A stretch of 64,000 nt of DNA from Candidatus Zhuqueibacterota bacterium. GTDB lineage: Bacteria; Zhuqueibacterota; Zhuqueibacteria; Oceanimicrobiales; Oceanimicrobiaceae. Every line of letters starts with the position of its first letter. Positions within the stretch are counted from its first letter, which is position 1. The DNA lies in the NCBI GenBank assembly GCA_029262055.1, contig JAJDAD010000034.1, forward strand, positions 102,430 through 166,429, written 5' to 3'. Position numbers and translations under genes: made by a program. Shown here piece after piece: positions 1 through 56,051 of this stretch. The notes beneath the pieces were generated by a model, which had not been told where the DNA came from, made no database searches, and was given only the letters and a program-made list of their open reading frames with translations.

Positions 1-10
1 GCATTGGTAT

Positions 11-2008
11 GTGGGATTCAAGGACAATGAAGACCTGACGATTTCTGCCGCTAACCGCCAGAGTGAAAAAGGCGACCAGGAGTGGGTCGAGATCGCGGAT
101 GCAAGTGAGGTGCACGACGGCAAAGTAGCGACGGTCAACATCGGTTCGAAAAGGCTGGCAGTGGCCAAAACCGAAAAAGGTCTCTATGCTGTCAACGCCC
201 GCTGCCCGCATCAGGGTGGGCCTTTGGGTGACGGGGAAATTTGCGGCGAGCATATCAGATGCCCGTGGCACGGCTTCAAGTTCGACCTGAAGACCGGCAA
301 GGGCGTCGGTAATGACGATGTAGTCGAAACCGTCAAAGTTCGTGAAAGCAACGGCAAGATTGAGGCGCTTGCGCCCAAGCCCAAGCGTTCCGGTTGGACC
401 GTCAGTCACGTCATGATGGAGACGCTGGTCGAGTGGGGTGTCAACACGGTCTTTGGCATGGTTGGTCACTCGAACCTGGGCGTTGCTGAGGCGCTTCGTG
501 TTCAGGAGAAGAAAGGCAACATCCGGTATTTCGGGGTTCGGCATGAAGGCGCAGCCGCATTCGCATGCTCCGGTTACGCAAAAGTGTCCGGGAAGCCCGC
601 TGCATGTCTCGCCATCGCAGGTCCGGGCGCAACAAATCTCCTGACCGGTTTGTGGGACGCCAAAATGGACCGGGCTCCGGTCATCGCGCTGACCGGACAG
701 GTCAATTCGCAAGTGCTCGGGCCTGGCGCTTTTCAGGAGATCGACCTGGCTTCTGCTTTCGCGGCGGTCTCGCAGTTCAGCCAAACCGTGCTTTCGGACA
801 GCGACCACCCCGAGCTGGCGTCACTTGCCTGCAAAACCGCCGTCGTTGAACGGAACGTGGCGCATCTCATCTTCCCGGACGAAATTCAGGTACAGGAAGC
901 AGCGGATGTTGGGCCAGGGCGGCCTGAAGGAAGAGTCAGCCAGACCAACATTACACCCCCGGACCAGGCAATTAACTATTCCATCTATCGTATTGCAAGG
1001 GCCAAAAGGCCCCTCATTATTGTCGGTTACGGTGCCGGCGATGGCATGAATGAGGTCATCGCCCTAGCCGAGAAATTCAACTGTCCGATCATCACGACTT
1101 TCAAAGGTAAAGGCCTTATCGCGGACGATCACGAGCTGGGGGGCGGTGTGTTAGGCGCGAGCGGCACTCCGGTAGCCAGTACCCTGATGAACGAATCCGA
1201 CATGCTCATTGTGTTTGGCGCATCTTTTTCCAAACATACAGGTATCGATTCGCACAAACCCATCATTCAGGTTGATTTCGACCGCATGGCTCTCGGAAAA
1301 TTTCATGCAGTTGACGAAGCGGTGTGGGGAGATGTCGGGCTCTCCGCCAAATTGATGGCCGAGCGTTTGCCGGACCAGGTTGGCTGCACCGACCAACGAA
1401 AACAGCTTGTCGACCTGAAGGACTCCTGGCAGAAAGAAAAAGCCGAGCGCGCCACCAAGGACGAAGGCAAGGGACTAAACTCGGCTATCATCTTTGATGC
1501 GTTGTCGCAGGTTGCACCCAAGAACGCCGTTCTGAGTGTGGACGTGGGCAACAACACCTATTCCTTTGGGCGCTATTTTGAGTGCCGGGGCCTGCAAAAG
1601 GTGATCCTGTCGGGCTACCTCGGTTCCATCGGGTTTGGCTTCCCTGCCGGTATGGGAGCCTGGGCGGCAGCCGGACACGATAGCAAGGTCATTGTCGTCT
1701 GCGGCGATGGCGGGTTCGGGCAGTATCTGGCGGATTTTACCACAGCGGTAAAATACAACATGGACATACTTGTCGTTTTACTGCACAACAAAGAGCTTGG
1801 TAAGATCTCCAAGGAGCAGCGTGACGGGGAATGGGACGTCTGGCAGACATCCCTGCAGAACCCGAGTTTTTCCGAATATGCCAGGCTTTGCGGTGGCAGC
1901 GGAACGAAAGTTGAAAAAGCGTCGCAGCTCAAAGCAGCTTTTGAAGAAGGTCTAAAGTCAAAAGGACCGTTCATCGTCGAAATCATTTCAGACGCTCTTT
2001 TGACCTAG
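11..2008 (+). CDS. Rieske [2Fe-2S] domain fused to a thiamine-diphosphate-dependent enzyme (pyruvate oxidase / acetolactate synthase family); probably 5'-truncated by the window edge
   Basis: N-terminal CPH-(17 aa)-CPWH Rieske motif. Downstream are a ThDP Pyr-domain (GPGATNLLTGL...) and a PP-domain GDGGFGQ...N ThDP-binding motif. The frame stays open back to nt 2 and the track start at 11 is a GTG, so the true start may lie upstream. Confidence 0.75.
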   Translation: MGFKDNEDLTISAANRQSEKGDQEWVEIADASEVHDGKVATVNIGSKRLAVAKTEKGLYAVNARCPHQGGPLGDGEICGEHIRCPWHGFKFDLKTGKGVGNDDVVETVKVRESNGKIEALAPKPKRSGWTVSHVMMETLVEWGVNTVFGMVGHSNLGVAEALRVQEKKGNIRYFGVRHEGAAAFACSGYAKVSGKPAACLAIAGPGATNLLTGLWDAKMDRAPVIALTGQVNSQVLGPGAFQEIDLASAFAAVSQFSQTVLSDSDHPELASLACKTAVVERNVAHLIFPDEIQVQEAADVGPGRPEGRVSQTNITPPDQAINYSIYRIARAKRPLIIVGYGAGDGMNEVIALAEKFNCPIITTFKGKGLIADDHELGGGVLGASGTPVASTLMNESDMLIVFGASFSKHTGIDSHKPIIQVDFDRMALGKFHAVDEAVWGDVGLSAKLMAERLPDQVGCTDQRKQLVDLKDSWQKEKAERATKDEGKGLNSAIIFDALSQVAPKNAVLSVDVGNNTYSFGRYFECRGLQKVILSGYLGSIGFGFPAGMGAWAAAGHDSKVIVVCGDGGFGQYLADFTTAVKYNMDILVVLLHNKELGKISKEQRDGEWDVWQTSLQNPSFSEYARLCGGSGTKVEKASQLKAAFEEGLKSKGPFIVEIISDALLT

Positions 2009-2238: not shown

Positions 2239-2892
2239 ATGAACGACAAAAATAACCAATATCTTGTTCTTACTGGTCTTGTTGGCTTAGTGGCCGCAAT
2301 ATTGGTCGGCGCGGGAGAGTTTCTGTTGCACTACGACCCGTTGGCCAGGTTTTCAGAAACGAGTTACGACTTTATGCGTGCTGCATCCGACCAGCGCCAA
2401 ACCGTTGGCCATTTTATTGGGGTCCTGGGTGTTCCGCTCTATCTCGTTGGTTGCTGGCATATGTACCTGATGTTGAAACCTGCCAACCAAACATGGGCAT
2501 TCATTACATTCCTGGTGGGTGCCTATGGATTCATAATGGGAGGCGATTGGATCAGCTCCCGGGCCAGCATAGGTGCGCTGATTCATTTACAGGACACTGG
2601 TCTACAGGTGGACTCACTGGTCGATCTGTACAGGATTCGGTATGAGAGCCTGCTAACCATTATTCGCGTGACGACCTTTGCGCTATCCTTGATGTTCATT
2701 GGCCTCACCCTGACCGGTCGCTCACACTACCCGAAATGGGCAGCCATCTTCAATCCTATCGTGTTGCTCGTTCTCAGCTTTGTGGTTTATGCGATCGCAC
2801 CCGCCATCGGGAAATATGTGATGCCTATTGCTTTGAATGTTGCGTTCTTTATCTTCTTTTCCATTTCAATTGTGCAGGCACGTAAGCTGTAA
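2239..2892 (+). CDS. integral membrane protein of unknown function (multiple predicted TM helices)
   Basis: 217 aa dominated by hydrophobic segments; strong RBS (AGGGAGG) 5-6 nt upstream of the ATG; no recognisable catalytic motif. Confidence 0.6.
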   Translation: MNDKNNQYLVLTGLVGLVAAILVGAGEFLLHYDPLARFSETSYDFMRAASDQRQTVGHFIGVLGVPLYLVGCWHMYLMLKPANQTWAFITFLVGAYGFIMGGDWISSRASIGALIHLQDTGLQVDSLVDLYRIRYESLLTIIRVTTFALSLMFIGLTLTGRSHYPKWAAIFNPIVLLVLSFVVYAIAPAIGKYVMPIALNVAFFIFFSISIVQARKL

Positions 2893-3130: not shown

Positions 3131-4747
3131 ATGAGCAGCGAACATCCTGAAGGTATGGAATTGCTTTTCAATGCCCAACACAACAAGTCGACGGCATTTA
3201 CCCTAGAGGAAAGGGCTAAGTACAAACTGCGGGGATTGCTGCCTGCGTCCATTTGCAGCCAGGAAGCTCAAACAGTTCGGACGTTAGAGAACATCCGGCG
3301 CAAGGAATACGATATCGAACGCTACATCTATTTGCAAGGGTTGCAGGGCCGAAACGAGCGCTTGTTCTATCGCCTGATCATCGATCATATCGAAGAGTTG
3401 ATGCCGATTATTTATACCCCGACTGTCGGCCAGGCCTGCCAGGAGTTTGCCCACATCTTTCGCCAACCTCGCGGTTTTTATATCACGCCCGACGACGGTG
3501 GGAACATCCGCCAAATGCTCGATAATTGGCCGGAAAAAGACGTCCGAATGATTGTCATCACCGATGGTCAGCGTATCCTGGGCTTGGGCGACCTGGGCGC
3601 GAATGGCATGGGAATACCGCTTGGTAAGCTGTCGCTGTACTCGGCGGGTGCAGGTATTCATCCCTGCCAGTGCTTGCCGGTTATGCTGGATGTAGGGACC
3701 AATAATGAAGAGCTGCGCAAGGATCCGCTCTATCTTGGCATCAACCGGGAGCGCTTGACCGGCGACGCCTATCTTGAGTTGGTGGACGAGTTTGTCGAGG
3801 CGGTGCGCGATGCATTTCCGCGGGCGCTGATCCAGTTTGAGGATTTTCTCACTCCGAATGCTTTTGCACTGCTGAATCGCTACCGTAACGATATCCTCTG
3901 TTTCAACGACGATATCCAGGGCACGGCTGCAGTCGCACTGGCCGGTGTCTATGCCTCTACCCGGATTTCCGGCATCGATTTTAAGGACCTGCGCATCATG
4001 TTTCTTGGTGCGGGATCGGCCGCCACCGGAATTGCCGATCTCATGAAGGCGGCTTTTTGTGACGCCGGCTTGAATGAGGCGGAAGCGGCCCGCAGGTTGT
4101 GGTTCGCGAACCGCAGCGGCCTGGTGGTCAAGAGTACAGAGAACCTCAAGCCGCACAACGTGCCTTATGCCCATGACCATCCGCAGCTTGACTTTCGCAG
4201 CGCCATTGAGTCTATCCGGCCGCATGTCCTGATCGGCGCGACCGGCTCGCCCGGTACTTTTACACAGGAAATCGTGGCACTGATGGCCACCATCAATCCC
4301 CGGCCGGTAATTTTTGCTTTGTCAAACCCCACCTCGCGCGCGGAATGTACAGCGGAGCAGGCCTATGAGTGGAGTGGCGGCCAGGCTATTTTTGCCAGCG
4401 GTAGCCCGTTTTCTACTGTCACTTTTCGGGGTAAAACCTATCGTCCGGGCCAGGGCAACAATGCTTATGTCTTCCCCGGTATCGGCCTGGGTGCCCTTGC
4501 CTGCAACGCCAGAGTGATCAGCGACGAGATGTTTCTGGCTGCGGCCCGCACACTTGCGGACATGGTTTCGGAGTCCCATTTGAACGAGGGTACCATCTAC
4601 CCGCCGCTCACTGACATCCGTAGCGTTTCCCTGGCAATTGCAGTTGCCGTGGCAGAGAAGGCCTATCAACAAAATCTCGCCATAGATGAACGGCCGGCGG
4701 ATTTGCACAAGTACATTGCCGATTCCATGTACGATCCGACTTACTAA
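3131..4747 (+). CDS. NAD(P)-dependent malic enzyme (oxaloacetate-decarboxylating malate dehydrogenase)
   Basis: Full-length similarity to the malic enzyme family (IYTPTVGQAC..., GLGDLGANGMGIP, dinucleotide-binding FLGAGSAATGIA); 538 aa. Confidence 0.9.
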   Translation: MSSEHPEGMELLFNAQHNKSTAFTLEERAKYKLRGLLPASICSQEAQTVRTLENIRRKEYDIERYIYLQGLQGRNERLFYRLIIDHIEELMPIIYTPTVGQACQEFAHIFRQPRGFYITPDDGGNIRQMLDNWPEKDVRMIVITDGQRILGLGDLGANGMGIPLGKLSLYSAGAGIHPCQCLPVMLDVGTNNEELRKDPLYLGINRERLTGDAYLELVDEFVEAVRDAFPRALIQFEDFLTPNAFALLNRYRNDILCFNDDIQGTAAVALAGVYASTRISGIDFKDLRIMFLGAGSAATGIADLMKAAFCDAGLNEAEAARRLWFANRSGLVVKSTENLKPHNVPYAHDHPQLDFRSAIESIRPHVLIGATGSPGTFTQEIVALMATINPRPVIFALSNPTSRAECTAEQAYEWSGGQAIFASGSPFSTVTFRGKTYRPGQGNNAYVFPGIGLGALACNARVISDEMFLAAARTLADMVSESHLNEGTIYPPLTDIRSVSLAIAVAVAEKAYQQNLAIDERPADLHKYIADSMYDPTY

Positions 4748-4830: not shown

Positions 4831-6885
4831 GTGAAGAAGCAATTTGAAAACAAAGAGATAAGTTGGCTGTCATTCAACGGCAGAGTATTGCAGGAGGCAG
4901 GCGATCCGACGGTTTCACTGATGGACCGGATCAAGTTTCTCGGCATATTTTCATCCAATCTCGATGAGTTTTTTCGCGTGCGTGTGGCCAATCTTAAACG
5001 ACTGGCGACGCTGGGGAAGAAGGCAAATGCAATTGTAGGCACTGACCCGAAGAAGACCCTCTCAAAAATCCAGGAGACTTTTCTGTTACAGGAGGACGTC
5101 TTTGAAGCCACCTATAGTCAAATCCTGGGTGAATTGCGGCAGAAAGGGATCGCCGTTATTGATGAGGAAGAAGTCAACGCGGAGCAAGGGGAATATGTCA
5201 AGAACTATTTCCTGCAAGTCGTGCGTCCAAAGCTCGTGCCGTTGATGTTGGATGGAGGGTCGACAGTACCTCACCTCAAAGATGGCTCTCTCTACTTAGC
5301 CATCCGCTTACTGAAAAACCGTGGTGGCAAACCGAAACATGCGCTTATTGAAGTACCGACGGCCTCACTGGGGCGCTTTGTCACGTTGCCGGTCTGTCGC
5401 GACAGCCAATGCATCATGTTTCTGGAAGACGTAATCCGCAATTGTCTGGGCAGTATCTTTACCATATTCAACCATGATCGCATCGAGGCATACTCGCTCA
5501 AGCTAACCCGGGACGCTGAGTTGGGTGTTGACGACGACCTGTCAGAAAGTTACATGCACAAAATCTCCAAGAGCATCAAGGGGAGGAAGTCTGGGACGCC
5601 GGTACACCTCATATACGACCGCCGCATATCGAGTGACTTTCTGAAGCTGCTGGTGACCAAACTGCAACTGAAGAAAGACAACTGCGACCTGATCCCTGGC
5701 AGGAAGTATTTGAATTTGAAAGACTTAATGAGCTTTCCGAAGCTGGATATGCTCAGTCCCAACGAGGCCGGAACCGCCCCGCTTGCACACAGAGACTTTG
5801 ACTCCAACGGTAGCATCTTCAAAGATATTCGTGAAAAAGATATCCTGCTTCATTACCCGTATCAGAGATTTGAGTATGTTATCGATTTTCTTAGGGAAGC
5901 AGCGATCGATCCAAAGGTGACCGCCATAAGAATGACGCTTTACCGCGTCGCTAAGGATTCGAATGTAATAAATGCTCTGATCAATGCCGCCAAGAACGGT
6001 AAATCGGTGACAGCCGTTGTGGAGTTAAAGGCCCGATTCGATGAGGAGCCAAACATCTACTGGGCTGAAAAGCTGCAGGAGGAGGGCGTAAAAGTCATCC
6101 ACGGCGTACCCGGCCTGAAAGTGCACGGCAAACTGATCTTGATTACCCGTCGCGAGAAAAGGGCCGACGTGCTGTACGCAAACATCGGGACCGGCAACTT
6201 CCATGAGGCGACCGCGAGAATATATTCCGATCACGGGCTCTTTACCGCAAATTCCTCAATCACCAAGGAGTTACAGAAGGTCTTCGGGCTGATCGAAAAC
6301 AACTATAAACGAGGTTCATTTAGGCATCTGCTAGTGTCCCCCTTCAATCTGCGTCAGAAATTTGTTAAGCTAATCAACGCTGAAATAAAAAACGCTCAAA
6401 ATGGCCAGAAAGCATTTATCATCGTTAAACTCAACAACCTGGTCGATAAGGCAATAATCACAAAGCTCTATCAAGCCAGTCAGGCAGGCGTGAAGATCAA
6501 ATTAATGGTGCGTGGCATGTGCGCACTGGTCCCCAACGTCAAGGGGATGAGCGAGAACATTGCGGCCAAACGCATCGTTGACAGGTTTCTTGAGCACACG
6601 CGACTGCTGGTCTTTTGCAGCGCTGGCGACCCGAAATACTACCTGTCCTCCGCAGATTGGATGTATCGCAATCTTGATCGCCGCATAGAAGTGGCTTGTC
6701 CACTCTACGATAAGGCCATTCAGGGCGAGATAAAACAATTTTTGGAAATTCAATGGGCCGATAATGTTAAGGCTACCTGGATCGACCAAAAATCTAACAA
6801 TGAAGTGGCACCAGACGAAAGAAAAGTGAGAGCGCAGGACGTCCTCTATGAGTATAACAAAGCGAGACTTCAGAAGGAATGTTGA
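4831..6885 (+). CDS. ppk: polyphosphate kinase 1
   Basis: Classic PPK1 N-terminal motifs (SWLSFNGRVLQEA, RIKFLGIFSSNLDEFFRVRV); 684 aa, typical length; GTG start. Confidence 0.9.
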   Translation: MKKQFENKEISWLSFNGRVLQEAGDPTVSLMDRIKFLGIFSSNLDEFFRVRVANLKRLATLGKKANAIVGTDPKKTLSKIQETFLLQEDVFEATYSQILGELRQKGIAVIDEEEVNAEQGEYVKNYFLQVVRPKLVPLMLDGGSTVPHLKDGSLYLAIRLLKNRGGKPKHALIEVPTASLGRFVTLPVCRDSQCIMFLEDVIRNCLGSIFTIFNHDRIEAYSLKLTRDAELGVDDDLSESYMHKISKSIKGRKSGTPVHLIYDRRISSDFLKLLVTKLQLKKDNCDLIPGRKYLNLKDLMSFPKLDMLSPNEAGTAPLAHRDFDSNGSIFKDIREKDILLHYPYQRFEYVIDFLREAAIDPKVTAIRMTLYRVAKDSNVINALINAAKNGKSVTAVVELKARFDEEPNIYWAEKLQEEGVKVIHGVPGLKVHGKLILITRREKRADVLYANIGTGNFHEATARIYSDHGLFTANSSITKELQKVFGLIENNYKRGSFRHLLVSPFNLRQKFVKLINAEIKNAQNGQKAFIIVKLNNLVDKAIITKLYQASQAGVKIKLMVRGMCALVPNVKGMSENIAAKRIVDRFLEHTRLLVFCSAGDPKYYLSSADWMYRNLDRRIEVACPLYDKAIQGEIKQFLEIQWADNVKATWIDQKSNNEVAPDERKVRAQDVLYEYNKARLQKEC

Positions 6886-7284: not shown

Positions 7285-8589
7285 ATGAGAACTCCGAGAT
7301 TCCTCGTTGATATCACCTGCATGTTGTTTTGGGCAGTACTGCTGTTTTGCGCCGGTTGCTCCCAACGTCCATCCGAAAGAGAAGGGGTTATCACCTATTG
7401 GTCAGCCAATAGTCAATACGAGCAGGATTTGGCTAAGGTTGTAGTGGCAGAATGGAATCAACTGCACCCTGACATACCGGTAAGGCACCAGCCGATCCCC
7501 GAAGGCCAGTCCAGTGAAGAAATAATCTTGGCAGCCGTGGTTGGCGAGAGTCCGCCAGACATCTATTCTAATATGTGGCCGGGCGATGTGGAGATTTATG
7601 TGAAAGCCAAAGCGCTGGTACCACTCAGCGACTTCAGCGACTTCGTCTCGGTTGCAGACTCCAGGTTGAAGCCTGAACTCGTGGAAGAGGCACGGTCGCT
7701 GGATGGGAAAGTCTACCAGATTCCCTGGAAAACGAACCCGATTATGATGTTGTACAACAAGGGTGTTCTGGCAGAAAATGGCTTTGCGCATCCTGCAAGA
7801 ACCTATTCGGAGTACTTGGCGCAAGCGAAAGCACTCACCGCTGATTTGGACGGTGATGGGTATACTGACCGCTACATGAGTTTGCTGGATATCCGGGCTA
7901 TCTGGTGGCAGCGTTTCTTTGATTACTATACATTTTATGTTGCCGCAACCGGTGGCAAGACCCTCATGCGTAACGGCCGGCCGACGTTTGATAATCCAGA
8001 ATCTGTTGCCGTCTTCGATTTTCTAAAGACGCTGTTTAAAGAGGAATATGCGCCGCTTGAAAAGGCCACGGGCCGTGGCGACCATTTCTTGGCGGGCCGG
8101 GTTCTTACCCGTTTTACCGGACCCTGGGAAATTACCCACGCCGAAAAATTCAAACCGGATGGATTCGAATATGACTTCGCGCCCATACCGGTGCCGGACG
8201 GATTCGAGGGGCCGGTTTACACTTATGGCGATTTCAAAAACATCGTGATATTTCGTACGAGCAACAAGGCCGAGGCAGCGTGGCAATTTGCGAAATTTAT
8301 GATTTCACGCAAGAATGATCATCGGCTCTTAACCATGACCAGCCAGATACCCATTCGGAAGAATGTTCTTGGAGATTCATTGTACCAGGAATACTTTCAG
8401 GAAAATCCCATGATGATGAGGTTTGCACGGCAGGCTGAGTATGTCCGGGGGATCGATTTAAGCAAAGCCATGAAAGAGGTTTTCGACGCTATTTCGCAAG
8501 AATACGAAGCCTGCGTGGTTTATGCAGCCAAATCGCCGGAAGCGGCGGTCCATGACGCATCCAAGAGGGTGGAGTTGATATTGAAATGA
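7285..8589 (+). CDS. ABC transporter substrate-binding lipoprotein, carbohydrate type (solute-binding family 1)
   Basis: Signal peptide with a lipobox-like LLFCAGCSQ; overall SBP family-1 character; stop overlaps the next permease gene by 4 nt (ATGA). Confidence 0.75.
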   Translation: MRTPRFLVDITCMLFWAVLLFCAGCSQRPSEREGVITYWSANSQYEQDLAKVVVAEWNQLHPDIPVRHQPIPEGQSSEEIILAAVVGESPPDIYSNMWPGDVEIYVKAKALVPLSDFSDFVSVADSRLKPELVEEARSLDGKVYQIPWKTNPIMMLYNKGVLAENGFAHPARTYSEYLAQAKALTADLDGDGYTDRYMSLLDIRAIWWQRFFDYYTFYVAATGGKTLMRNGRPTFDNPESVAVFDFLKTLFKEEYAPLEKATGRGDHFLAGRVLTRFTGPWEITHAEKFKPDGFEYDFAPIPVPDGFEGPVYTYGDFKNIVIFRTSNKAEAAWQFAKFMISRKNDHRLLTMTSQIPIRKNVLGDSLYQEYFQENPMMMRFARQAEYVRGIDLSKAMKEVFDAISQEYEACVVYAAKSPEAAVHDASKRVELILK

Positions 8590-9476
8590 AAGCCGGGCTG
8601 CACAAGAACAAGAAAGGCAAGAGCGACAAAATAGGGTACCTGCTGGTGTCGCCGTACTTGCTGCATCTCTGCTTGTTCGTTGGATTCCCGATTGTTTTCT
8701 GTTTCGTTCTGGTGTTCCACAAATGGGACATCGTGTCTGAGATGGAATGGGTCGGCCTGACTAATTTCAGTCGACTTTTTCAGGATAAACTGTTCTTCAA
8801 GGCGATTCTAAACACGCTGACTTTTCTTTTGGTACATATTCCTTTGCAGTTGATCATAGCGCTGTTCTTGGCGGAGTTGCTCAACCAGAAGCTCAAAATT
8901 CGTGGTTTCTTCCGGGCGTCTTTTTTTATGCCAGTGGTGGTTTCGGGTGTGGTGATTACGATTTTATGGGACCAAATATACGCCCAGGACACCGGAATGC
9001 TCAATCTCATACTGGCGAAATTCGGGATGCCAAAAATGCGGTGGTTGACAAGCCCGGAGCTTGCCATGCCCAGCATCGCGATTATGGCCACCTGGAAGAA
9101 TGTCGGATTATACATCGTGCTGTTCCTCGTTGGCTTGCAAGCTGTGCCGAAGTATCTCTACGAAGCAGCAGACCTCGAAGGGGCATCGCACTGGTACAAG
9201 TTCACCAGAATCACGCTGCCAATGATCAATCCGACCGTTTACATGGTGGTGATTCTGTCAACTATTGGCGGCTTCTCACTCTTTATTGAGCCGTATGTCA
9301 TGACCGGCGGCGGGCCGATGAACTCGACTCTTTCGGCGGTTCTGTATATTTATAATCAGGGCTTCTTTTTCTATCACATGGGTTATGCAGCCACGCTTGC
9401 GTTCTTCTTTGCAGCTATCATTTTCGCGGTGATCATGATTCAGAGAAAAGTAATTGAAAAGGAATCGGCGTACTAG
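8586..9476 (+). CDS. ABC sugar transporter permease (MalF/UgpA-like)
   Basis: Six TM segments; EAA loop 'EAADLEGASHWYKFTRITLP'. Confidence 0.85.
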   Translation: MKAGLHKNKKGKSDKIGYLLVSPYLLHLCLFVGFPIVFCFVLVFHKWDIVSEMEWVGLTNFSRLFQDKLFFKAILNTLTFLLVHIPLQLIIALFLAELLNQKLKIRGFFRASFFMPVVVSGVVITILWDQIYAQDTGMLNLILAKFGMPKMRWLTSPELAMPSIAIMATWKNVGLYIVLFLVGLQAVPKYLYEAADLEGASHWYKFTRITLPMINPTVYMVVILSTIGGFSLFIEPYVMTGGGPMNSTLSAVLYIYNQGFFFYHMGYAATLAFFFAAIIFAVIMIQRKVIEKESAY

Positions 9477-10283
9477 GTGAAAAAACTACAACAATATTCG
9501 CTCCTTGTTTTCTGGACGGTCCTGTTCATCTACCCTTTCTTATGGATGCTGTCCGCGACCCTTCGGCCTGAGCGAGAGATCAAGGGTTTTGGCATTTGGC
9601 CGTCGGAGGTGAGCTTGTACAATTACGCTCAGGTCTTCGAGAAGATTCCTATCTTGCGCGCGTTCCTCAACAGTATTTTTGTCGCATTAGTGGTCACTGT
9701 GGCCGTGGTGGTATTTTGCTCAATGATCGGATACGCGCTTAGCCGCCTGCATTTCAGGGGCAGGGACGCCATCTTTTATATTGTGTTATTCACCATGATG
9801 ATTCCTTTTCAGATCATCTTGATTCCGCTCTATATTCTCATGGTGAAGTTTGGTTGGGTGAATTCTTACCTGGCCCTGATTGTCCCGTGGATGGTGAGTG
9901 CGCTCGGTATTGTTCTGTTCAGGCAGTATTTTCAAAGCATTCCCAAGGACCTCCTGGAGGCGGCCCGAATCGATGGCTGTAACGAAGTGCAAATTATTTT
10001 CAGAATCATTTGGCCTAATTCGATCCCAACGTTGATCACAGTTGGGATCTTGACTTTTATGACCACTTGGAATGAAGTGCTTTGGCCGCTCATTGTTATC
10101 CGTGACACTCATTTGATGACCATGCCGCAACTGGTGACCATCTTCGCCGTGGGCGGGCAGGCGGAGAATCAGCTCGGCGTGCAGTTGGCGGCTGCAACGC
10201 TTCTGGCCTTGCCTGTGATCGTCGCCTACGCGTTTTTTCAAAAATACTTCATCGAAAGCATGGCGACTACAGGTTTGAAATGA
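9477..10283 (+). CDS. ABC sugar transporter permease (MalG/UgpE-like)
   Basis: TM protein with EAA loop 'EAARIDGCNEVQIIFRIIWP'; directly abuts the previous permease gene. Confidence 0.85.
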   Translation: MKKLQQYSLLVFWTVLFIYPFLWMLSATLRPEREIKGFGIWPSEVSLYNYAQVFEKIPILRAFLNSIFVALVVTVAVVVFCSMIGYALSRLHFRGRDAIFYIVLFTMMIPFQIILIPLYILMVKFGWVNSYLALIVPWMVSALGIVLFRQYFQSIPKDLLEAARIDGCNEVQIIFRIIWPNSIPTLITVGILTFMTTWNEVLWPLIVIRDTHLMTMPQLVTIFAVGGQAENQLGVQLAAATLLALPVIVAYAFFQKYFIESMATTGLK

Positions 10284-10308
10284 ACTCAGATAATCCCAAC
10301 TTGAGGAA

Positions 10309-11634
10309 ATGCCGATAGTGAAAACCACAATGCTCGCCCTGAAGCCAGTCCGCTTCTTCTTGTTCATCCTGTTGCTTCTGGGCTGCAACCGCGAGGCGGC
10401 ACAGCAGAAAGTGGGCCTGCAGTGGGTGAACCTTGCCCACTTGAATCACTTATATGAGGAGGTTGTGATCGATGGCAAGCCAATGGCCATCATTCACATC
10501 TATTCCGAGTATCCCGACTACGAGTGGGTGGATGCCAGTGATGAGGGCATCGCTTGCGTAGATGATGTGGCGCGGGCTGCTGTGGTCTATTTGCGCCATT
10601 TTGAAATAACAGAAGATTCTGCCAGCCTTGAGCGGGCCCGCAAGCTACTTGAGTTTTGCCGCTACATGCAGGCCGAGGATGGACAATTTTACAATTTTAT
10701 CTACCAGGACCGTTCGAGAAACACGGACGGCAAGACCAGCTTCAAGAGCTTTGGCTGGTGGGCCGCACGTGGTCTGTGGGCTCTGGGCGAGGGCTATCGC
10801 GTTTTCCTCAAAAGAGATCCGCAATATGCACGCCAGCTTGAAACGCAGATTAAAAAAACCTTCCCCCAAATCGATTCTTTACTTCGGCACTATCCTGTGG
10901 TTGAGACCACAGATGGCTTCTCAGCACCGCAATGGTTGCTTTACAATTCTGCGGCAGATGCCACTTCTGAGCTGATGCTGGGTCTAGCAGCCTATGCAAA
11001 GGCATCAGGCAATCCGATAGTCCTGAGTTATCTTGAGAAATTTGGGGAGGGCTTATTGGCGATGCAACTTGAAGCTGGGTCCTATTTCCCCAGCGGTTTG
11101 CATTTGTCATGGCAAAATACCTGGCACGCCTGGGCAAATGGCCAGACTCAGGCCCTGGGCAGGTTAGCAAGTTTGGTTGAAAACCCACAGTTCATTGAAG
11201 CCGCAAGGTTGGAATGCACGGACTTCTACCCCAAGTGGATTGAACATGGTTTTCCACGCGAGATGACCTTTGTACACAACGGAACCCCCAAGATTGACAA
11301 GATCATGCCATTCGACCAAATCGCCTACGGATTGCGCCCGGCTGTTGTTGGTGCTCTGGTTCTTGCCGACTTGACTGGAGAAGAGCAATTTTCTGAGCTG
11401 GCCGCAAAACTTGCAACCTGGTTTTTCAAGAGTAATCCGGCAATAGCACAAATGTACGACCCGAAAACCGGACGTTGCTACGACGGCATTTTGTCGGCAA
11501 CTCAGGTTAACCGAAACTCCGGTGCGGAGTCAACGATTGAAGCGCTCTACGCTCTCCTGGAAGTCGAGGCTGATCCGGTGGCTAAAGAATGGCTGATGGA
11601 CTATCTCGAAACCCAAAATAGCGGAGGGGGCTGA
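10309..11634 (+). CDS. secreted/lipoprotein with an unidentified conserved domain, possibly glycoside-hydrolase-like; shares a C-terminal motif block with the C-terminal half of the GT4 fusion at 12754-15093
   Basis: Signal peptide + LLGC lipobox. Shared block 'YDPKTGRCYDGIL...NRNSGAESTIEALYALL' vs 'YDPKTGGCRDGLT...NQNEGAESSLAWLLSLM' in the later ORF. Embedded in the GH130/GT4/ABC carbohydrate locus. Fold and function are unknown; a glycoside-hydrolase-like role is only a guess. Confidence 0.5.
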   Translation: MPIVKTTMLALKPVRFFLFILLLLGCNREAAQQKVGLQWVNLAHLNHLYEEVVIDGKPMAIIHIYSEYPDYEWVDASDEGIACVDDVARAAVVYLRHFEITEDSASLERARKLLEFCRYMQAEDGQFYNFIYQDRSRNTDGKTSFKSFGWWAARGLWALGEGYRVFLKRDPQYARQLETQIKKTFPQIDSLLRHYPVVETTDGFSAPQWLLYNSAADATSELMLGLAAYAKASGNPIVLSYLEKFGEGLLAMQLEAGSYFPSGLHLSWQNTWHAWANGQTQALGRLASLVENPQFIEAARLECTDFYPKWIEHGFPREMTFVHNGTPKIDKIMPFDQIAYGLRPAVVGALVLADLTGEEQFSELAAKLATWFFKSNPAIAQMYDPKTGRCYDGILSATQVNRNSGAESTIEALYALLEVEADPVAKEWLMDYLETQNSGGG

Positions 11635-12579
11635 ATGTCAAGTCGAGAGGATCCACGGGAGTTGTTCCAACGTTTTGAAGGTAATCCAATCTTGACTGCC
11701 AAGGATTGGCCCTATCCGGCGAATACTGTTTTCAACGCCGGGGCAACGCGTTTCAACAACCAAACTCTCTTGCTTATCAGAGTTGAGGACTTGCGTGGAA
11801 GTTCTCATTTGACTGTTGCCACGAGTAGAGATGGCGTAACCGGTTGGGAGATAAAAGGGCACCCGGCACTTCATCCTGACGATGGCCTGTCATCAGAAAG
11901 CTGGGGCATAGAAGATCCACGCATAGCTTATCTTGAAACGGATGAGAAGTACGTTATTTGTTACACCGGCTACTCGCGTGGAGGACCGGCGGTCTGTTTG
12001 GCCACGACTGACAGTTTTAGGGATTTCAAGCGGTATGGCACGATCTTGCCACCTTTCAATAAGGATGCTTCAGTATTCCCAAAGAAGATAGGCGGTCAGT
12101 ATGTGCTCATTCATAGACCGGCCTTTTCCGAAGAATCTGCGTACATCTGGCTGGCCAAATCACCGGACCTACAACACTGGGGGCAACACGGGTTGGTGAT
12201 GGAGACACGGCCGGGATTTTGGGACTCACAAAAAATTGGGATGGGCCCGCCGCCGATTGAAACATCGGAGGGCTGGTTGATTCTATATCACGGAGTTCGA
12301 TTAACGGCAGCTGGTTCAATTTATCGATTGGGCCTTGCGCTTTTGGACCTCGAAGATCCGGCGAAGGTAATCCGAAGGAGTCAACAATGGGTTTTCGGCC
12401 CGTCCACCGACTTTGAGCGAGCAGGGGATGTTGACAACGCCAATTTCCCTTGCGGACTCGTTGTCGATGAGCAAACGGATGAGTTGTATTTGTACTATGG
12501 CGCCGCCGACACCTGCCTGGCGCTCGCCACTGCGAAGGTCAGCGAGCTGCTTGAATTCGTGAGAAAGGACGGTTGTTAA
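11635..12579 (+). CDS. GH130-family glycoside phosphorylase / 'glycosidase-related' protein (DUF377, 5-bladed beta-propeller)
   Basis: Motifs typical of GH130 beta-mannoside phosphorylases (GIEDPRI, WLILYHGV); 314 aa; the start codon overlaps the stop of the upstream gene. Confidence 0.75.
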   Translation: MSSREDPRELFQRFEGNPILTAKDWPYPANTVFNAGATRFNNQTLLLIRVEDLRGSSHLTVATSRDGVTGWEIKGHPALHPDDGLSSESWGIEDPRIAYLETDEKYVICYTGYSRGGPAVCLATTDSFRDFKRYGTILPPFNKDASVFPKKIGGQYVLIHRPAFSEESAYIWLAKSPDLQHWGQHGLVMETRPGFWDSQKIGMGPPPIETSEGWLILYHGVRLTAAGSIYRLGLALLDLEDPAKVIRRSQQWVFGPSTDFERAGDVDNANFPCGLVVDEQTDELYLYYGAADTCLALATAKVSELLEFVRKDGC

Positions 12580-12753
12580 ATGAAATGAGACAGATTTTGA
12601 ATACGAACTTGAGGTGCAAGTAACTCGAAACGGTTTTTCATCAAACGGGATGTCACGCGCGTTTTGCTCTGCTATCCGGATTTATACCATTGTTAAGATT
12701 AGAAAACCGGTCCAAATCAAGCGAAATGCCGGGCTGTCTGGGACTAGCCTCCG

Positions 12754-15093
12754 GTGTCTTATGATAACAACTCAAGTAGGAGTGCTATGTCGTCTACCGA
12801 CATGAACTATGAGGAAATTGGCTCGGTTGCTGTAATCGGCAACTATTTGCCACGCCAATGCGGTATTGCAACCTTCACGACGGATCTTGTTGAAGCGTTG
12901 TCAAAGCAAGCTTCCGACGTGAATCTTGAAGCCATTGTCATGAATGACAACCCGGAAGGATACAAGTATCCTGAAAAAGTGCGATTTGAGATTCAACAGA
13001 ACAAGCTTTCCGATTACAACATTGCGGCGGAATATCTCAATATCAATCAGATGGATATTGTCTGCGTTCAACATGAATATGGCATTTTTGGAGGAACTGC
13101 CGGCAGCCATCTTTTGAAACTCCTGGGAGAACTTCGCATGCCTGTGGTGACAACGCTGCACACCGTACTTAAAGATCCCAAGCCTGAATATCGCGAAGTT
13201 ATGCTTAAGCTGACCGATCTATCTGAAAAACTGATTGTGATGAGTAGGAAAGCCGTGAATTTTCTGACCGATATCTATGACATACCGGAAGAGAAAATTG
13301 CCTTTATCCATCACGGCATTCCAGACGTTCCTTTTGTGGATCCCAACTTTTACAAAGAGAAGTTCAGGGTTGAGGGAAAGAAAGTGCTTCTCACCTTCGG
13401 ACTGCTTGCTCCCAATAAGGGCATTGAACATGTGCTGCAAGCGCTTCCAACTATCATAAAAAAACATCCCGACATTGCTTACATCATTTTGGGAGCCACG
13501 CATCCCAATATTCTAAAAGCGCATGGGGACGAATATCGTATCAGGCTGCAGCAGCTTGTTCATAAACTCAATCTCAGTGATCATGTTCATTTTCAAAACC
13601 GGTTTGTCGGACTGAATGAATTATGTGAGTTTCTTGGTGCTGCAGATGTCTATATTACTCCCTATCTGGAAGAAGCTCAGATTACTTCCGGGACGTTGAT
13701 CTATGCGATGGGATCTGGCAAACCGGTTGTCTCAACGCCGTACTGGTATGCAACAGAGATGCTTGCCGACGAAAGAGGAATAATCGTTCCGTTCCAGGAT
13801 TCTGATGCGATCGCGGAGGAAATCACCAACCTTGTCGACCAGGATATGGATCGTAATCAGATCCGAAAGAATGCCTACAGTTTCACTCGCGAGGCGGTTT
13901 GGAGTGAAGTTTCGAAAAGATATCTTGATGTTTTTTGCGAGGTCAAACTCAAACGTTCGTTACACCCCCGCCCTCGTCACTTATACTCCGATAATATCAA
14001 ATCAATCACCAATTTTGAACTACCGGAAATCAAGTTTGACCACCTGAAAATCATGACCGATGATACCGGTATTCTTCAACATGCCACCTACACCATCCCA
14101 AACAGAAATCATGGCTACTGCACCGATGACAATGCCAGAGCACTAGTGGTTACCGCTATGGCCTGCAAATACTCCTCGCCTAACAGCGTGTGGCTGGATT
14201 CTCTCAGCAACCTATATCTCAGTTTTATACTTGACGCCTATAACGAAGACAATGGCAGGTTTCGCAATTTCATGACCTACTCCCGACAATGGATGGAAGA
14301 AATGGGTTCGGAGGATTCTCACGGCAGAGCCCTATGGGGTCTTGGGAAAATCATTGTCTTCACCCACTATACCGGACAGAAGGATGTGGCGACCCTGCTA
14401 TTCAAACGGGCGTTGAATGCGGTCGAAGAATTCGCTTCTCCCCGGGCTATGGCTTTTGCGTTAGTTGGTATTCATGCTTATCTGGAAAAATTCTCGGGGG
14501 ACAGTGAGGTGCGCCGGATGCGAAAAATTCTTGCGGAAAAACTTTTTAAATTGTTTAAAAATAACACGACTCAGAAATGGCCCTGGCTTGAAAAAAAAGT
14601 CAGCTATGCCAATGGTAAATTAGTCCATGCGTTACTCCTCTCCGGCCAATGGATGCAGCGCAATGATATGATTGAGATGGGACTCAATTCGCTCAGATGG
14701 CTGCTCGACATTCAAACCGAAAAGGGACACTTTTCCCCCATTGGGAGTCATGGCTGGTATGAACAAGATCGCCCCAAAGCTCGTTTTGATCAACAGCCTC
14801 TCGAAGCCAATGCGATGATCGAAGCCTGTGTGGAAGCTTTTAACTTAACGAGGAATAGAGTTTGGCTCGATTCCGCTGTCGTGTGCTTTAACTGGTTTTT
14901 GGGACATAACGACTTGAATCTATCGCTCTATGATCCTAAAACAGGCGGCTGCCGCGACGGTTTGACGGCGGATGGAATCAACCAGAATGAAGGAGCAGAA
15001 TCATCGCTGGCCTGGCTACTTTCGCTGATGGCGTTACAAACCCTTTATTCCGATGAAATTCTAAAACAGCCAACGTCCGAATCAGTAGCTTAG
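12754..15093 (+). CDS. GT4-family glycosyltransferase fused to the unknown C-terminal domain also found in 10309-11634
   Basis: N-terminal GT-B/GT4 features. The C-terminal ~350 aa carry the same DPKTGxCxDG...NxGAES block as the standalone protein at 10309. The track start at 12754 is a GTG; an ATG at 12787 preceded by AGGAG (4-nt spacer) is a plausible alternative start. Confidence 0.7.
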   Translation: MSYDNNSSRSAMSSTDMNYEEIGSVAVIGNYLPRQCGIATFTTDLVEALSKQASDVNLEAIVMNDNPEGYKYPEKVRFEIQQNKLSDYNIAAEYLNINQMDIVCVQHEYGIFGGTAGSHLLKLLGELRMPVVTTLHTVLKDPKPEYREVMLKLTDLSEKLIVMSRKAVNFLTDIYDIPEEKIAFIHHGIPDVPFVDPNFYKEKFRVEGKKVLLTFGLLAPNKGIEHVLQALPTIIKKHPDIAYIILGATHPNILKAHGDEYRIRLQQLVHKLNLSDHVHFQNRFVGLNELCEFLGAADVYITPYLEEAQITSGTLIYAMGSGKPVVSTPYWYATEMLADERGIIVPFQDSDAIAEEITNLVDQDMDRNQIRKNAYSFTREAVWSEVSKRYLDVFCEVKLKRSLHPRPRHLYSDNIKSITNFELPEIKFDHLKIMTDDTGILQHATYTIPNRNHGYCTDDNARALVVTAMACKYSSPNSVWLDSLSNLYLSFILDAYNEDNGRFRNFMTYSRQWMEEMGSEDSHGRALWGLGKIIVFTHYTGQKDVATLLFKRALNAVEEFASPRAMAFALVGIHAYLEKFSGDSEVRRMRKILAEKLFKLFKNNTTQKWPWLEKKVSYANGKLVHALLLSGQWMQRNDMIEMGLNSLRWLLDIQTEKGHFSPIGSHGWYEQDRPKARFDQQPLEANAMIEACVEAFNLTRNRVWLDSAVVCFNWFLGHNDLNLSLYDPKTGGCRDGLTADGINQNEGAESSLAWLLSLMALQTLYSDEILKQPTSESVA

Positions 15094-15102
15094 GCCTGCG
15101 GA

Positions 15103-48948: not shown

Positions 48949-48955
48949 GTTCAGC

Positions 48956-51294: not shown

Positions 51295-51301
51295 CCCGAA
51301 T

Positions 51302-52597: not shown

Positions 52598-52606
52598 GGA
52601 AGCTCA

Positions 52607-55938: not shown

Positions 55939-55947
55939 AGTCCTGCC

Positions 55948-55987: not shown

Positions 55988-56051
55988 AAGAAAAAAACAG
56001 CTATATTAATTTCATTAAGTCTTACAGGATTTCTAACGAGGGAAGGACCAG

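Follow-up and report, generated by a model that had tools for sequence, protein, structure and literature searches.

A pyruvate oxidase-type ThDP enzyme fused to Rieske, CDGSH and Fer4_19 iron-sulfur domains in Candidatus Zhuqueibacterota

A gene cut by the edge of the window

We analyzed a stretch of 64,000 nt of contig JAJDAD010000034.1 of a Candidatus Zhuqueibacterota bacterium (hereafter the window), which opens within a gene for a thiamine-diphosphate (ThDP) enzyme. The ORF at 11..2008 (+; 665 aa) encodes, in one uninterrupted frame, a Rieske [2Fe-2S] domain and a complete three-domain ThDP enzyme. The frame runs without a stop codon back to base 2 of the window, and a database protein of 871 aa (P0001) is 100% identical across all 665 aa of the ORF. 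Base 2 therefore corresponds to codon 204, and we rejected the GTG at nt 11 as a start codon. Based on Pfam matches on P0001, the 5' 609 nt of the gene lie upstream of the window and encode 203 residues comprising the first CDGSH domain, a Fer4_19 domain and most of the second CDGSH domain. The full architecture of P0001 is CDGSH-Fer4_19-CDGSH-Rieske-ThDP core, with four Fe-S sites, of which only the Rieske site lies fully in the window. The following features were defined:

2..2008, + strand: 3' 77% of the gene, codons 204-871 and the stop codon (open frame, identity to P0001, Pfam on P0001)
2..10, + strand: final three codons of the second CDGSH [2Fe-2S] motif, for H204, W205 and Y206 (alignment with P0001; invariant columns in alignments A1 and A2)
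80..313, + strand: Rieske [2Fe-2S] domain, P0001 residues 230-307 (Pfam PF00355, E 5.5e-18; ligands invariant in 115 sequences)
377..397, + strand: linker K-P-K-R-S-G-W, residues 329-335, from the last Rieske strand to the first helix of the Pyr domain (alignments A1 and A2; AF2 secondary structure)
398..751, + strand: ThDP Pyr domain (TPP_enzyme_N), residues 336-453 (Pfam, 1.9e-32; alignment with PoxB, IlvI and Oxc)
986..1345, + strand: central domain of the FAD/nucleotide-binding type (TPP_enzyme_M), residues 532-651 (Pfam, 8e-30; invariant columns)
1541..1984, + strand: ThDP PP domain (TPP_enzyme_C), residues 717-864 (Pfam, 3e-31; PoxB alignment; survey of cluster representatives)
2006..2008, + strand: stop codon TAG (frame reading)

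The AF2 model of the protein has a pLDDT of 86 and a pTM of 0.81. Scans of the window for Rfam families and tRNAs returned no matches.

A preliminary description of this DNA had reported an uninterrupted fusion of a Rieske domain to a complete ThDP enzyme of the POX/ALS family, and the order of the Pfam domains in a single open frame confirms it. The motifs that it named are all present (CPH at nt 203-211, CPWH at nt 260-271 and GDGGFGQ from nt 1703), and it had rightly suspected that the gene begins upstream, as the frame open to base 2 and the 871 aa of P0001 indicate. Its placement of the Rieske domain at the N-terminus needs to be amended: the domain is fused ahead of the ThDP core, but CDGSH, Fer4_19 and CDGSH domains precede it. 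The suggestion that this Rieske center provides the enzyme with its own one-electron acceptor was incomplete for the same reason, since the three additional Fe-S sites upstream of the window would make it part of a four-cluster relay.

We then considered the possibility that the fusion is an artefact of a frameshift, a chimeric assembly or faulty ORF calling that merged two genes. Members of the clade are encoded in at least 596 species-representative genomes, which span more than a dozen phyla and belong mostly to marine, sediment and symbiont lineages. The full set of domain families was found in 111 of the best 120 database proteins (NCBI, ENA, JGI, Logan), and 115 of these 120 aligned over their full length at 61–85% identity, which provided our alignment of homologues. 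An intact fused ORF was also present in 78 of the 80 best genomic loci, across many phyla. No frameshift was found in the single open frame, and homologues hold the Rieske part in the same polypeptide, two points on which the preliminary description had made the fusion depend. With this survey we reject an assembly or frameshift artefact, whose probability we consider negligible.

Iron-sulfur modules and the ThDP core

The window begins at the last ligand of the second CDGSH cluster, since H204 is the His ligand of the motif C189-x-C191-x8-C200-D-G-S-H204. In full-length P0001, Pfam detected zf-CDGSH in two copies (110 bits) along with Fer4_19 (72 bits), and two C-x-C-x8-C-x3-H motifs lie on either side of the Fer4_19 domain, the pattern that identifies the CDC subtype of type 7 CISD proteins. 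The closest solved CDGSH domain is that of the Ralstonia type 4 protein 3tbm. The ligands of all four sites are invariant or nearly invariant in the 115 sequences (C44/C46/C55/H59; C94/C100/C133; C189/C191/C200/H204; C271/H273/C290/H293). At the Fer4_19 site, C94 is nearly invariant, C100 and C133 are invariant or nearly so, and the nearby H96 is invariant. The presence of three Cys suggests that this cluster is probably [3Fe-4S].

In their passages on type 7 CDGSH proteins, Lin et al. (2011; PMC3174974) describe the subtype CDC as CDGSH-DUF1271-CDGSH, and residues 1-206 of P0001 show exactly this arrangement. The subtype is defined there without a catalytic domain, whereas the module is here the N-terminal part of an 871-aa enzyme; a term search of the CDC passages found no mention of a ThDP or Rieske fusion. 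Another study (PMC5859297) merely lists Rieske_2 among the domains co-occurring with CDGSH. We found no biochemical study of any family member in the full-text literature on fusions of CDGSH, Rieske, rubredoxin or DUF1271 with ThDP enzymes or pyruvate oxidase.

The Rieske domain was also detected on the translation of window positions 2-2008 (PF00355, residues 27-105, E 4.7e-18, 65 bits against a cut-off of 20.3). Its ligand codons are C271 (nt 203-205), H273 (nt 209-211), C290 (nt 260-262) and H293 (nt 269-271), and the boxes C271-P-H273 and C290-P-W-H293 are invariant in the 115 sequences. Both boxes lack the second Cys, as in the low-potential Rieske proteins of the dioxygenase-ferredoxin type, and the stretch is all-beta in the AF2 model. 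The closest solved chains are the Rieske ferredoxins 5bok, 2qpz and 1vck, so that the domain is most similar to the electron-shuttling Rieske ferredoxins of dioxygenase systems. In the linker that follows, S333 is nearly invariant and W335 invariant (alignments A1 and A2); judging from alignments and model, this short linker keeps the Rieske domain near the N-terminus of the Pyr domain.

The three ThDP domains were found in order on the same translation, all well above their gathering cut-offs: TPP_enzyme_N at residues 133-250 (1.2e-32, 112.6 bits against 26.8), TPP_enzyme_M at 329-448 (4.7e-30, 104.5 against 30.4) and TPP_enzyme_C at 514-661 (1.6e-31, 109.6 against 21.9). The cofactor-activating Glu385 (motif RHE, nt 545-547) is invariant in the 115 sequences, and the active-site loop F447-Q448-E449 (nt 731-739) is conserved. 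The Mg-ThDP motif GDG-x(24-27)-N(N) is present as G771-D-G-G (nt 1703-1714) and N799 (nt 1787-1789); both elements are invariant in the 115 sequences and align, as does E385, with PoxB, IlvI and Oxc. In the active oligomer, the ThDP sites are located at the interfaces of dimers. Downstream of this motif, E808-Q809 is conserved, with Glu at 808 (nt 1814-1816) as in PoxB and Trp in E. coli AHAS III (IlvI), a residue equivalent to Trp574, which binds the acceptor in plant AHAS.

Two features of PoxB are missing from this core. The protein ends 7 residues past the PP domain, whereas PoxB runs on for about 40 residues, and alignment with E. coli PoxB revealed no C-terminal amphipathic membrane-binding peptide of the PoxB type; nearly all fused members surveyed have a tail of only 0–3 residues. 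In addition, K804 (nt 1802-1804) stands in place of PoxB F465. This Lys is invariant in A1 and A2, but the survey of cluster representatives showed K, M, E or N at this position across sister clades, with Phe only in the tailed PoxB-like representatives, so that Lys804 does not mark the fused clade as a whole. Without the lipid-binding tail and with F465 replaced, the route to quinone used by PoxB is absent.

In POX and PoxB, a Phe (LpPOX F479, PoxB F465) is placed between the cofactors ThDP and FAD and mediates electron transfer from the first to the second. Its replacement raises the possibility that the central domain binds ADP or nothing, and that the Rieske center oxidizes the hydroxyethyl-ThDP enamine directly in two one-electron steps via a ThDP radical, in the manner of PFOR on a POX scaffold. 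The metallodomain is always joined directly to the Pyr domain by a linker of about 7 residues, and PFOR offers a precedent, since its Fe-S clusters can oxidize HE-ThDP directly. In contrast, the segments that contact FAD in POX and AHAS are invariant in the 115 sequences (nucleotide-pocket segments G545-x-G547, T568-T569-F570-K571, G588-x-S590-G591, G609-x-S611-F612, D628 and G646-D647). Several of these motifs also occur in ADP-binding relatives such as Oxc, but the segment G588-x-S590-G591, which is deleted in Oxc, is kept here. Moreover, when the central domain is compared alone with solved structures, most of the best matches bind FAD and precede those that bind ADP, and AHAS with Met at the position of K804 still binds FAD. 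These patterns suggest that a flavin is probably kept in the central domain, and we consider oxidation without one an unlikely alternative.

Variation of the metal module and gene neighborhood

Of the best 80 loci, the 78 with an intact ORF fall into three forms: Rieske-ThDP, tandem-CDGSH-Rieske-ThDP and CDGSH-Fer4_19-CDGSH-Rieske-ThDP. A 660-aa homologue from Engelhardtia mirabilis Pla133 (L049) exemplifies the form with Rieske only. The nearest sister enzymes (P0126, P0130 and P0133; 40–48% identity) carry an N-terminal rubredoxin instead of the Rieske module. Indeed, every close clade of this ThDP branch has a one-electron metallodomain at the same N-terminal place, whether Rieske, CDGSH variants with Rieske, or rubredoxin. 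The independent fusion of different one-electron carriers at one position argues for a role in electron transfer rather than in regulation. The CDGSH-Fer4_19-CDGSH-Rieske module is also found on other redox enzymes, namely on a Glu_synthase FMN domain (P0155) and on FMN_red (P0163), and in one protein without a recognized catalytic domain (P0203).

Alternatively, the protein might be a non-redox ThDP decarboxylase or carboligase of the ALS/AHAS type, whose Fe-S domains sense O2, NO, iron or redox status. Enzymes of the AHAS type rank among the best matches in both sequence and fold, and the FAD that AHAS binds is vestigial in catalysis. Since CDGSH clusters are labile and respond to redox state and pH, they could switch activity. 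A role of CDGSH proteins in sensing or in donating clusters is often considered (PMC5859297). However, the four different one-electron carriers that occupy the same position in sister clades, the serial chain of four clusters, which is typical of a wire, and the occurrence of the same module on FMN redox enzymes are difficult to reconcile with this scenario. The core itself also differs from AHAS: position 808 is Glu, and the biosynthetic AHAS model TIGR00118 reached 293 bits against a cut-off of 538. Finally, no AHAS small-subunit gene was found among the recurrent neighbor clusters of the relatives' loci. A sensory role consequently appears quite improbable.

The gene neighborhood of relatives provides a candidate partner. 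A GltS-like FMN/[3Fe-4S] gene was found within 10 kb in 26 of the 78 loci and directly adjoining on the same strand in 20 of them, often only a few bases apart or overlapping, which suggests co-translation. Such adjacent pairs occur, for example, at loci L040 and L046 of Candidatus Thiodiazotropha and, for the CDGSH-Fer4_19-CDGSH form, at L015. The product of the GltS-like gene matches PF01645, has the [3Fe-4S] motif C-x5-C-x4-CP and carries at its N-terminus a Rieske, tandem-CDGSH or CDGSH-Fer4_19-CDGSH module. This module is the same as that of the adjacent ThDP enzyme in pairs of types B and C (motif scan) and in two pairs of type A (sequence reading). The shared outer metal module, where examined, suggests that the ThDP enzyme and its GltS-like neighbor form a redox pair.

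For the 871-aa form, no partner gene was found nearby in 17 of 20 loci, and the only conserved neighbor was a CDGSH-Fer4_19-CDGSH-GltS-like gene in the remaining 3; a SAR324 locus (L087) has unrelated neighbors. Within the window, tblastn searches for partner genes with GltS-like, Ferric_reduct-Rieske, cluster c2-c4 and CDGSH-module queries matched only the gene's own Rieske region. The next ORFs in the window encode a DUF6796 protein and an NAD-malic enzyme, and the gene for the latter lies 43 nt downstream in an 87%-identical relative (L001). The malic enzyme gene after the ThDP gene in both places is a weak hint that pyruvate is the substrate.

Proposed electron path and comparison with known systems

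The preliminary description had proposed a 2-oxoacid oxidoreductase of non-standard design, with a quinone or a ferredoxin-like protein as acceptor. We infer that its first part is the best-supported reading, based on the rubredoxins of sister enzymes, the lost PoxB anchor and the putative redox partners neighboring the relatives' genes; a direct quinone acceptor is unlikely, given that the protein lacks the lipid-binding tail of PoxB. On balance, the protein is probably a soluble POX-type oxidoreductase that feeds electrons singly into its fused Fe-S relay. Its substrate would be a 2-oxoacid, most likely pyruvate given its family affinity, and its acceptor is presumably a protein rather than a membrane quinone. 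In this scheme, the cytoplasmic enzyme would decarboxylate the 2-oxoacid oxidatively, and the two electrons would pass neither to O2, as in LpPOX, nor to a membrane quinone, as in PoxB, but one at a time into the relay. From hydroxyethyl-ThDP, they would reach the probably retained flavin of the central domain, which would act as converter from two-electron to one-electron transfer, and then the Rieske [2Fe-2S] center, which a linker of about 7 residues attaches to the Pyr domain. The clusters beyond it would follow in the order CDGSH-2, Fer4_19 (probably [3Fe-4S]) and CDGSH-1, from which electrons would leave to the protein partner.

Architecture alone leaves the direction of flow unfixed. 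It is conceivable that a partner sends electrons inward through the Fe-S chain to the flavin or ThDP for a reductive or radical reaction, such as reductive carboxylation or acyl-radical chemistry, and the FMN_red fusion P0163 could be an NAD(P)H-driven donor. However, with a potential near -500 mV for the pyruvate/acetyl + CO2 couple and of roughly -150 to 0 mV for Rieske ferredoxin, CDGSH and rubredoxin centers, electrons run downhill only when they pass from the substrate to the clusters; the potentials of these centers are far too positive for 2-oxoacid synthesis. To our knowledge, no enzyme of the POX/ALS family runs reductively, and the usual neighbor has a GltS-like FMN/[3Fe-4S] domain of a family that takes electrons from ferredoxin. 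We therefore consider inward flow very improbable.

The outward flow that we favor can be extended, much more tentatively, to a modular redox system that has not been recognized previously and in which the ThDP enzyme is one node. Soluble donor and acceptor enzymes with the same N-terminal Fe-S 'plug' (Rieske, tandem CDGSH or CDGSH-Fer4_19-CDGSH) would exchange electrons like-with-like. Besides the POX-type ThDP 2-oxoacid oxidase, candidate nodes would be an FMN_red-type flavoprotein, the GltS-like FMN/[3Fe-4S] reductase and a membrane cytochrome b of the MsrQ type. The commonest form of the system would have the ThDP enzyme in the place of ferredoxin or of the NADPH-oxidizing GltD subunit, yielding a pyruvate-driven, oxygen-tolerant synthase of glutamate (or a related imine) that is independent of NAD(P)H and ferredoxin. 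Although we regard this extension as somewhat doubtful, the pairing of matched modules with GltS-like enzymes makes the link between central carbon oxidation and nitrogen assimilation testable.

Three designs of ThDP enzymes that oxidize 2-oxoacids are known: the lipoamide complexes such as pyruvate dehydrogenase, the flavin-linked oxidases and quinone reductases POX, PoxB and PQO, and the oxygen-sensitive [4Fe-4S] enzymes PFOR/OFOR. If our reading is true, a POX scaffold wired to generally oxygen-tolerant Rieske, CDGSH and Fer4_19 clusters would be a fourth. Bacterial CDGSH domains, whose function is largely unknown, would gain a concrete role as links of an electron wire, and an oxygen-tolerant pyruvate oxidoreductase releasing single electrons would be of interest for biocatalysis and bioelectrochemistry.

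Among solved structures, the ThDP core is closest to E. coli PoxB, a pyruvate:ubiquinone oxidoreductase, to plant AHAS and to the pyruvate oxidase of L. plantarum. By sequence, the best PDB match was PoxB (3eya), which aligned along the entire ThDP core with an E value of 3e-66, and Foldseek retrieved PoxB (3ey9/3eya, TMt 0.88) and C. glutamicum PQO (9ev5, 0.87). The best NCBIfam matches were models of pyruvate oxidase and pyruvate dehydrogenase, although the whole protein reached no curated cut-off (NF006377, pyruvate oxidase, 391 bits against 742; TIGR02720, 284 against 638; NF006591, 283 against 792). The enzyme shares with PoxB and PQO the three-domain ThDP fold, the catalytic Glu, the GDGG...N motif, the F-Q-E loop, the Glu at 808 and, as predicted here, the oxidative decarboxylation of pyruvate. 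It differs from PoxB by an identity of only about 26%, by the missing C-terminal lipid-binding tail of about 40 residues, by the change of Phe465 to Lys804 and by an N-terminal extension of about 335 residues with four Fe-S sites. Family, fold and central-domain motifs are also common to L. plantarum pyruvate oxidase (1pox) and to the AHAS of plants and bacteria (1ybh, 6lpi). The segment G803-K804-I-S-K-E808-Q809 resembles the LpPOX motif G-F479-I-K-D-E483-Q, with Lys instead of Phe at position 804. Biosynthetic AHAS differs by the Trp of IlvI at Glu808 and by its regulatory subunit, for which no gene was found among the recurrent neighbors.

Type 5 CDGSH proteins, described in passages of PMC3174974 as tandem CDGSH with a glutamate-synthase FMN domain, and ferredoxin-dependent glutamate synthase are kin of the relatives' neighbor gene. 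These GltS-like proteins are putative partners rather than homologues of the ThDP enzyme, and none is encoded in the window.

Finally, the enzyme resembles PFOR/OFOR in the working principle proposed here, a ThDP enzyme passing the electrons of a 2-oxoacid outward through a built-in Fe-S chain. The Pfam domains of PFOR (POR_N, POR, PFOR_II, PFOR-type TPP_enzyme_C and 2x[4Fe-4S] ferredoxin) had no matches in the window translation or in P0001, and the likeness is an analogy of mechanism, not family membership. PFOR requires CoA and relies on three low-potential, oxygen-sensitive [4Fe-4S] clusters, whereas the enzyme described here carries Rieske, CDGSH and Fer4_19 clusters, of higher potential and generally oxygen-tolerant, on a POX scaffold.

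Domain order and metal sites of the fusion protein

The open reading frame at 11-2008 (+) comprises 665 codons in one uninterrupted frame. A Pfam search with the translation of nt 2-2008 recovered four domains.

Domains in the window, numbered by residue of the nt 2-2008 translation
27-105, +: Rieske [2Fe-2S] (E 4.7e-18)
133-250, +: TPP_enzyme_N (E 1.2e-32)
329-448, +: TPP_enzyme_M (E 4.7e-30)
514-661, +: TPP_enzyme_C (E 1.6e-31)

The top solved relatives by sequence were E. coli PoxB (3eya, E 3e-66), plant AHAS and L. plantarum pyruvate oxidase (POX), each aligned over the whole thiamine-diphosphate (ThDP) core. The motifs CPH (nt 203-211), CPWH (nt 260-271) and GDGGFGQ (from nt 1703) are all readable in the DNA. 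Together, the domains, the motifs and these matches over the whole core confirm the preliminary description of a Rieske domain fused without a break to a full ThDP enzyme of the POX/ALS family. Its suggestion that the gene starts upstream of the window also holds: the frame runs without a stop codon from base 2 to the GTG at nt 11, and the database protein P0001, with 100% identity across all 665 residues, is 871 aa long. Window base 2 corresponds to codon 204 of P0001, whose numbering is used below, and the first residue is His204, the final ligand of the second CDGSH cluster. In P0001, Pfam places zf-CDGSH, Fer4_19 (80-141), zf-CDGSH (161-205), Rieske (230-307), TPP_N (336-453), TPP_M (532-651) and TPP_C (717-864) in this order. 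The CDGSH-Fer4_19-CDGSH layout of its N-terminal 206 residues is what Lin et al. 2011 (PMC3174974) term a type 7 CDGSH protein, subtype CDC.

The best 120 database matches, from sources such as SAR324, Kiloniellales, Gemmatimonadota, Latescibacterota and Leptospirales, were 61-85% identical to P0001 over the alignment. All of the domain families were present in 111 of them, 109 of which are 860-900 aa long; we regard it as extremely improbable that the fusion is an artefact. Conservation was read from two alignments, of 30 and 115 sequences.

Conserved sites in both alignments (P0001 numbering)
CDGSH-1: C44, C46, C55, H59, invariant
Fer4_19: H96, C100, C133, invariant; C94, nearly invariant
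CDGSH-2: C189, C191, C200, H204, invariant
Rieske: C271, H273, C290, H293, invariant
ThDP core: E385, G771-D-G-G, N799, K804, E808, Q809, invariant

The Fer4_19 site has three Cys only, with Ala97 where the second Cys is usual and His96 beside it; judged from these ligands, its cluster may be a [3Fe-4S] or a non-Cys-ligated [4Fe-4S]. The second Cys pair typical of high-potential Rieske proteins is missing from both Rieske boxes, and the nearest solved chains are dioxygenase-system Rieske ferredoxins (5bok, 2qpz, 1vck).

Distribution and architectural variants

The preliminary description raised the question of how widespread the Rieske-ThDP fusion is. With one genome scanned per species, two search peptides, both clade-specific, located at least 596 loci with a relative. 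Of the best 80 loci, 78 had an intact, classifiable frame.

Forms of the fusion among 78 loci
Form A: CDGSH-Fer4_19-CDGSH-Rieske-ThDP, about 870 aa, 20 loci
Form B: Rieske-ThDP, the fusion as first described, about 660 aa, 51 loci
Form C: tandem CDGSH-Rieske-ThDP, about 750 aa, 7 loci

Record titles name Alpha- and Gammaproteobacteria, Acidobacteriota, Gemmatimonadota, Actinomycetota, Bacteroidota, Nitrospirota, Nitrospinota, Poribacteria, Myxococcota, Cyanobacteria, Deinococcota, Leptospirales and Planctomycetota, the last with the cultured Engelhardtia mirabilis Pla133. Many of these records are metagenome-assembled genomes, marine or symbiont.

HMMER was also run exhaustively against 1.84 billion cluster representatives, and Pfam was then applied to the matches. 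The next-nearest ThDP enzymes (P0126, P0130 and P0133; 40-48% core identity) carry an N-terminal rubredoxin in the place of the Rieske domain. This sister clade, which also includes P0141 and P0143 (the locus of P0130 is L086), is 36-48% identical to the Rieske-fused enzymes, and its C-terminal tail is short or absent (0-8 residues). Fusions of the CDGSH-Fer4_19-CDGSH-Rieske module to a glutamate-synthase FMN domain (P0155, 754 aa) and to an FMN_red (WrbA-like) flavoprotein (P0163, 574 aa) were also found, as was the module without any recognised catalytic domain (P0203, 391 aa). By these architectures, the whole module is portable.

Neighbouring genes in relatives and in the window

Clustering the reading frames of all loci revealed a sole strongly recurrent neighbour, a protein of about 540 aa that combines a glutamate-synthase FMN domain (PF01645) with a C-x5-C-x4-CP [3Fe-4S] motif. 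This GltS-like gene is no more than 10 kb away in 26 of 78 loci (L015, L022, L027 and 23 more, e.g., L040, L046 and L036) and directly adjoins the ThDP gene on the same strand in 20 of 78, often with a gap of a few bases or an overlap.

Examples of the GltS-like gene
L015: 8123-9958
L022: 5200-7029
L027: 12151-13698

Its N-terminal metal module tracks the outermost module of the ThDP enzyme. All form B pairs with a complete frame have a Rieske domain on the GltS-like partner, both form C pairs (L027, L039) have tandem CDGSH, and, of the three form A pairs (L015, L017 and L022), the two whose sequences were read, L015 and L022, have CDGSH-Fer4_19-CDGSH. The two genes thus look like a like-with-like redox pair. 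Form A loci have no further conserved neighbourhood beyond these pairs.

Among the 51 form B loci, a fusion of a Ferric_reduct (MsrQ-like) membrane domain with Rieske accompanies an unknown 269-aa protein in 8; an unknown protein of about 290 aa is found near 11 and a Na+/H+ exchanger near 7. The transmembrane haem domain carries its Rieske C-terminally (e.g., L061:4938-5999 (-), L024, L047, L049, L062, L075), and the protein of about 269 aa beside it has an N-terminal membrane segment. The Ferric_reduct-Rieske protein could serve the soluble Rieske enzymes as their acceptor in the membrane. None of these recurrent neighbours was found in the 64-kb window.

Genes following the ThDP gene in the window
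2239-2892, +: DUF6796 membrane protein, between the ThDP and malic-enzyme genes
3131-4747, +: NAD-malic enzyme
4831-6885, +: polyphosphate kinase 1

In L001, an 87%-identical relative, the malic-enzyme gene lies 43 nt downstream of the ThDP gene. Since malic enzyme, a pyruvate producer, lies downstream in both, it hints weakly at pyruvate as the substrate. The order NAD-malic enzyme to polyphosphate kinase 1 is common to both; a DUF6796 gene of L001 is 8 kb upstream, not between the ThDP and malic-enzyme genes. In the window, the DUF6796 gene is followed by a terminator-like hairpin (2931-2952).

Further features of the window
7285-19384, +: sugar cluster with an ABC transporter (binding protein, two permeases, MalK-like ATPase), two GH130 phosphorylase-like and two GT4 glycosyltransferase genes
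21838-23961, +: 707-aa protein with CoA_binding, Succ_CoA_lig and ATP-grasp_5, the architecture of ADP-forming acetyl-CoA synthetase
48472-57800, +: complex I (nuo) row with fused NuoC-NuoD (621 aa)
57849-59099, +: second, separate Complex1_49kDa-type frame (416 aa), downstream of the row
59190-61193, +: CCG-domain/4Fe-4S dicluster protein, HdrD/GlpC-like (667 aa)
61329-63002, +: 2-oxoacid dehydrogenase E2 component with two lipoyl domains

Elsewhere, ADP-forming acetyl-CoA synthetase partners PFOR and yields ATP from acetyl-CoA. The E2 gene implies that a classical lipoamide-type 2-oxoacid dehydrogenase is present in the organism too. Across positions 1-64000, nearly every long frame is encoded on the + strand. 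GC skew stays above zero in all 4-kb bins, and its cumulative value climbs steadily to 0.90. No tRNA genes or Rfam families were detected in the 64 kb.

Proposed electron route and comparison with known enzymes

The family was aligned with PoxB, IlvI and Oxc from the E. coli K-12 genome. The protein ends seven residues beyond the PP domain, and the C-terminal lipid-binding peptide of PoxB, roughly 40 residues long, is therefore absent. PoxB Phe465, the counterpart of LpPOX Phe479 between ThDP and FAD, is replaced by Lys804; across the fused clades this residue is K, M, E or N, and Phe is found only in tailed PoxB-like representatives. Glu808 aligns with a conserved Glu of PoxB, whereas IlvI has a Trp equivalent to the acceptor-site Trp574 of plant AHAS. 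Central-domain segments that contact FAD in POX and AHAS structures are invariant, including G588-x-S590-G591, which is deleted in the ADP-binding Oxc. Searched alone, the central domain ranked mostly FAD-binding enzymes before ADP-binding ones. Given these segments and this preference, FAD is probably retained, and flavin-free direct transfer as in PFOR, even with the Phe position altered, appears unlikely.

No curated NCBIfam model was reached; the top one was pyruvate oxidase NF006377 (391 bits against a cut-off of 742). An AlphaFold2 model from 115 sequences had pLDDT 86 and pTM 0.81. In a Foldseek search of the PDB, alignments spanned the ThDP core alone (TMq at most 0.55; TMt 0.88 for PoxB); the fused arrangement is thus absent from the solved structures among the matches listed.

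On the simplest reading, the protein is a soluble 2-oxoacid oxidoreductase of the POX type. Its ThDP would decarboxylate the 2-oxoacid, and the enamine would then be oxidised, probably via a retained flavin as a two-electron to one-electron converter. Electrons would exit through the Rieske cluster, which a linker of about 7 residues joins to the Pyr domain, and may travel on via the three upstream clusters to a partner protein. Pyruvate as the substrate is an inference, as are the product, flavin content and acceptor. Clusters serving as sensors on a non-redox enzyme are improbable: chemically different one-electron carriers were independently fused at the same position, the clusters are arranged in series, the exit route of PoxB is lost, flavoenzymes reuse the metal module and the partner gene bears a matching one, all of which argues for electron transfer. 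The 2-oxoacid couple has a potential close to -500 mV, compared with about -150 to 0 mV for centres of the Rieske ferredoxin, CDGSH and rubredoxin types. These potentials favour flow from substrate to clusters, and inward flow is very improbable.

Full-text literature searches found no paper on a CDGSH/Rieske-ThDP fusion; in the portions of the CDGSH surveys considered, the only mention is of co-occurrence of CDGSH with Rieske and Fer4_19 domains (PMC5859297; PMC3174974). Automatic annotations call family members 'CDGSH iron-sulfur domain-containing protein', 'thiamine pyrophosphate-binding protein' or 'pyruvate oxidase'. We consider the new element to be a built-in Fe-S exit route on a POX-family ThDP oxidoreductase, which would share the working principle of PFOR without being related to it.
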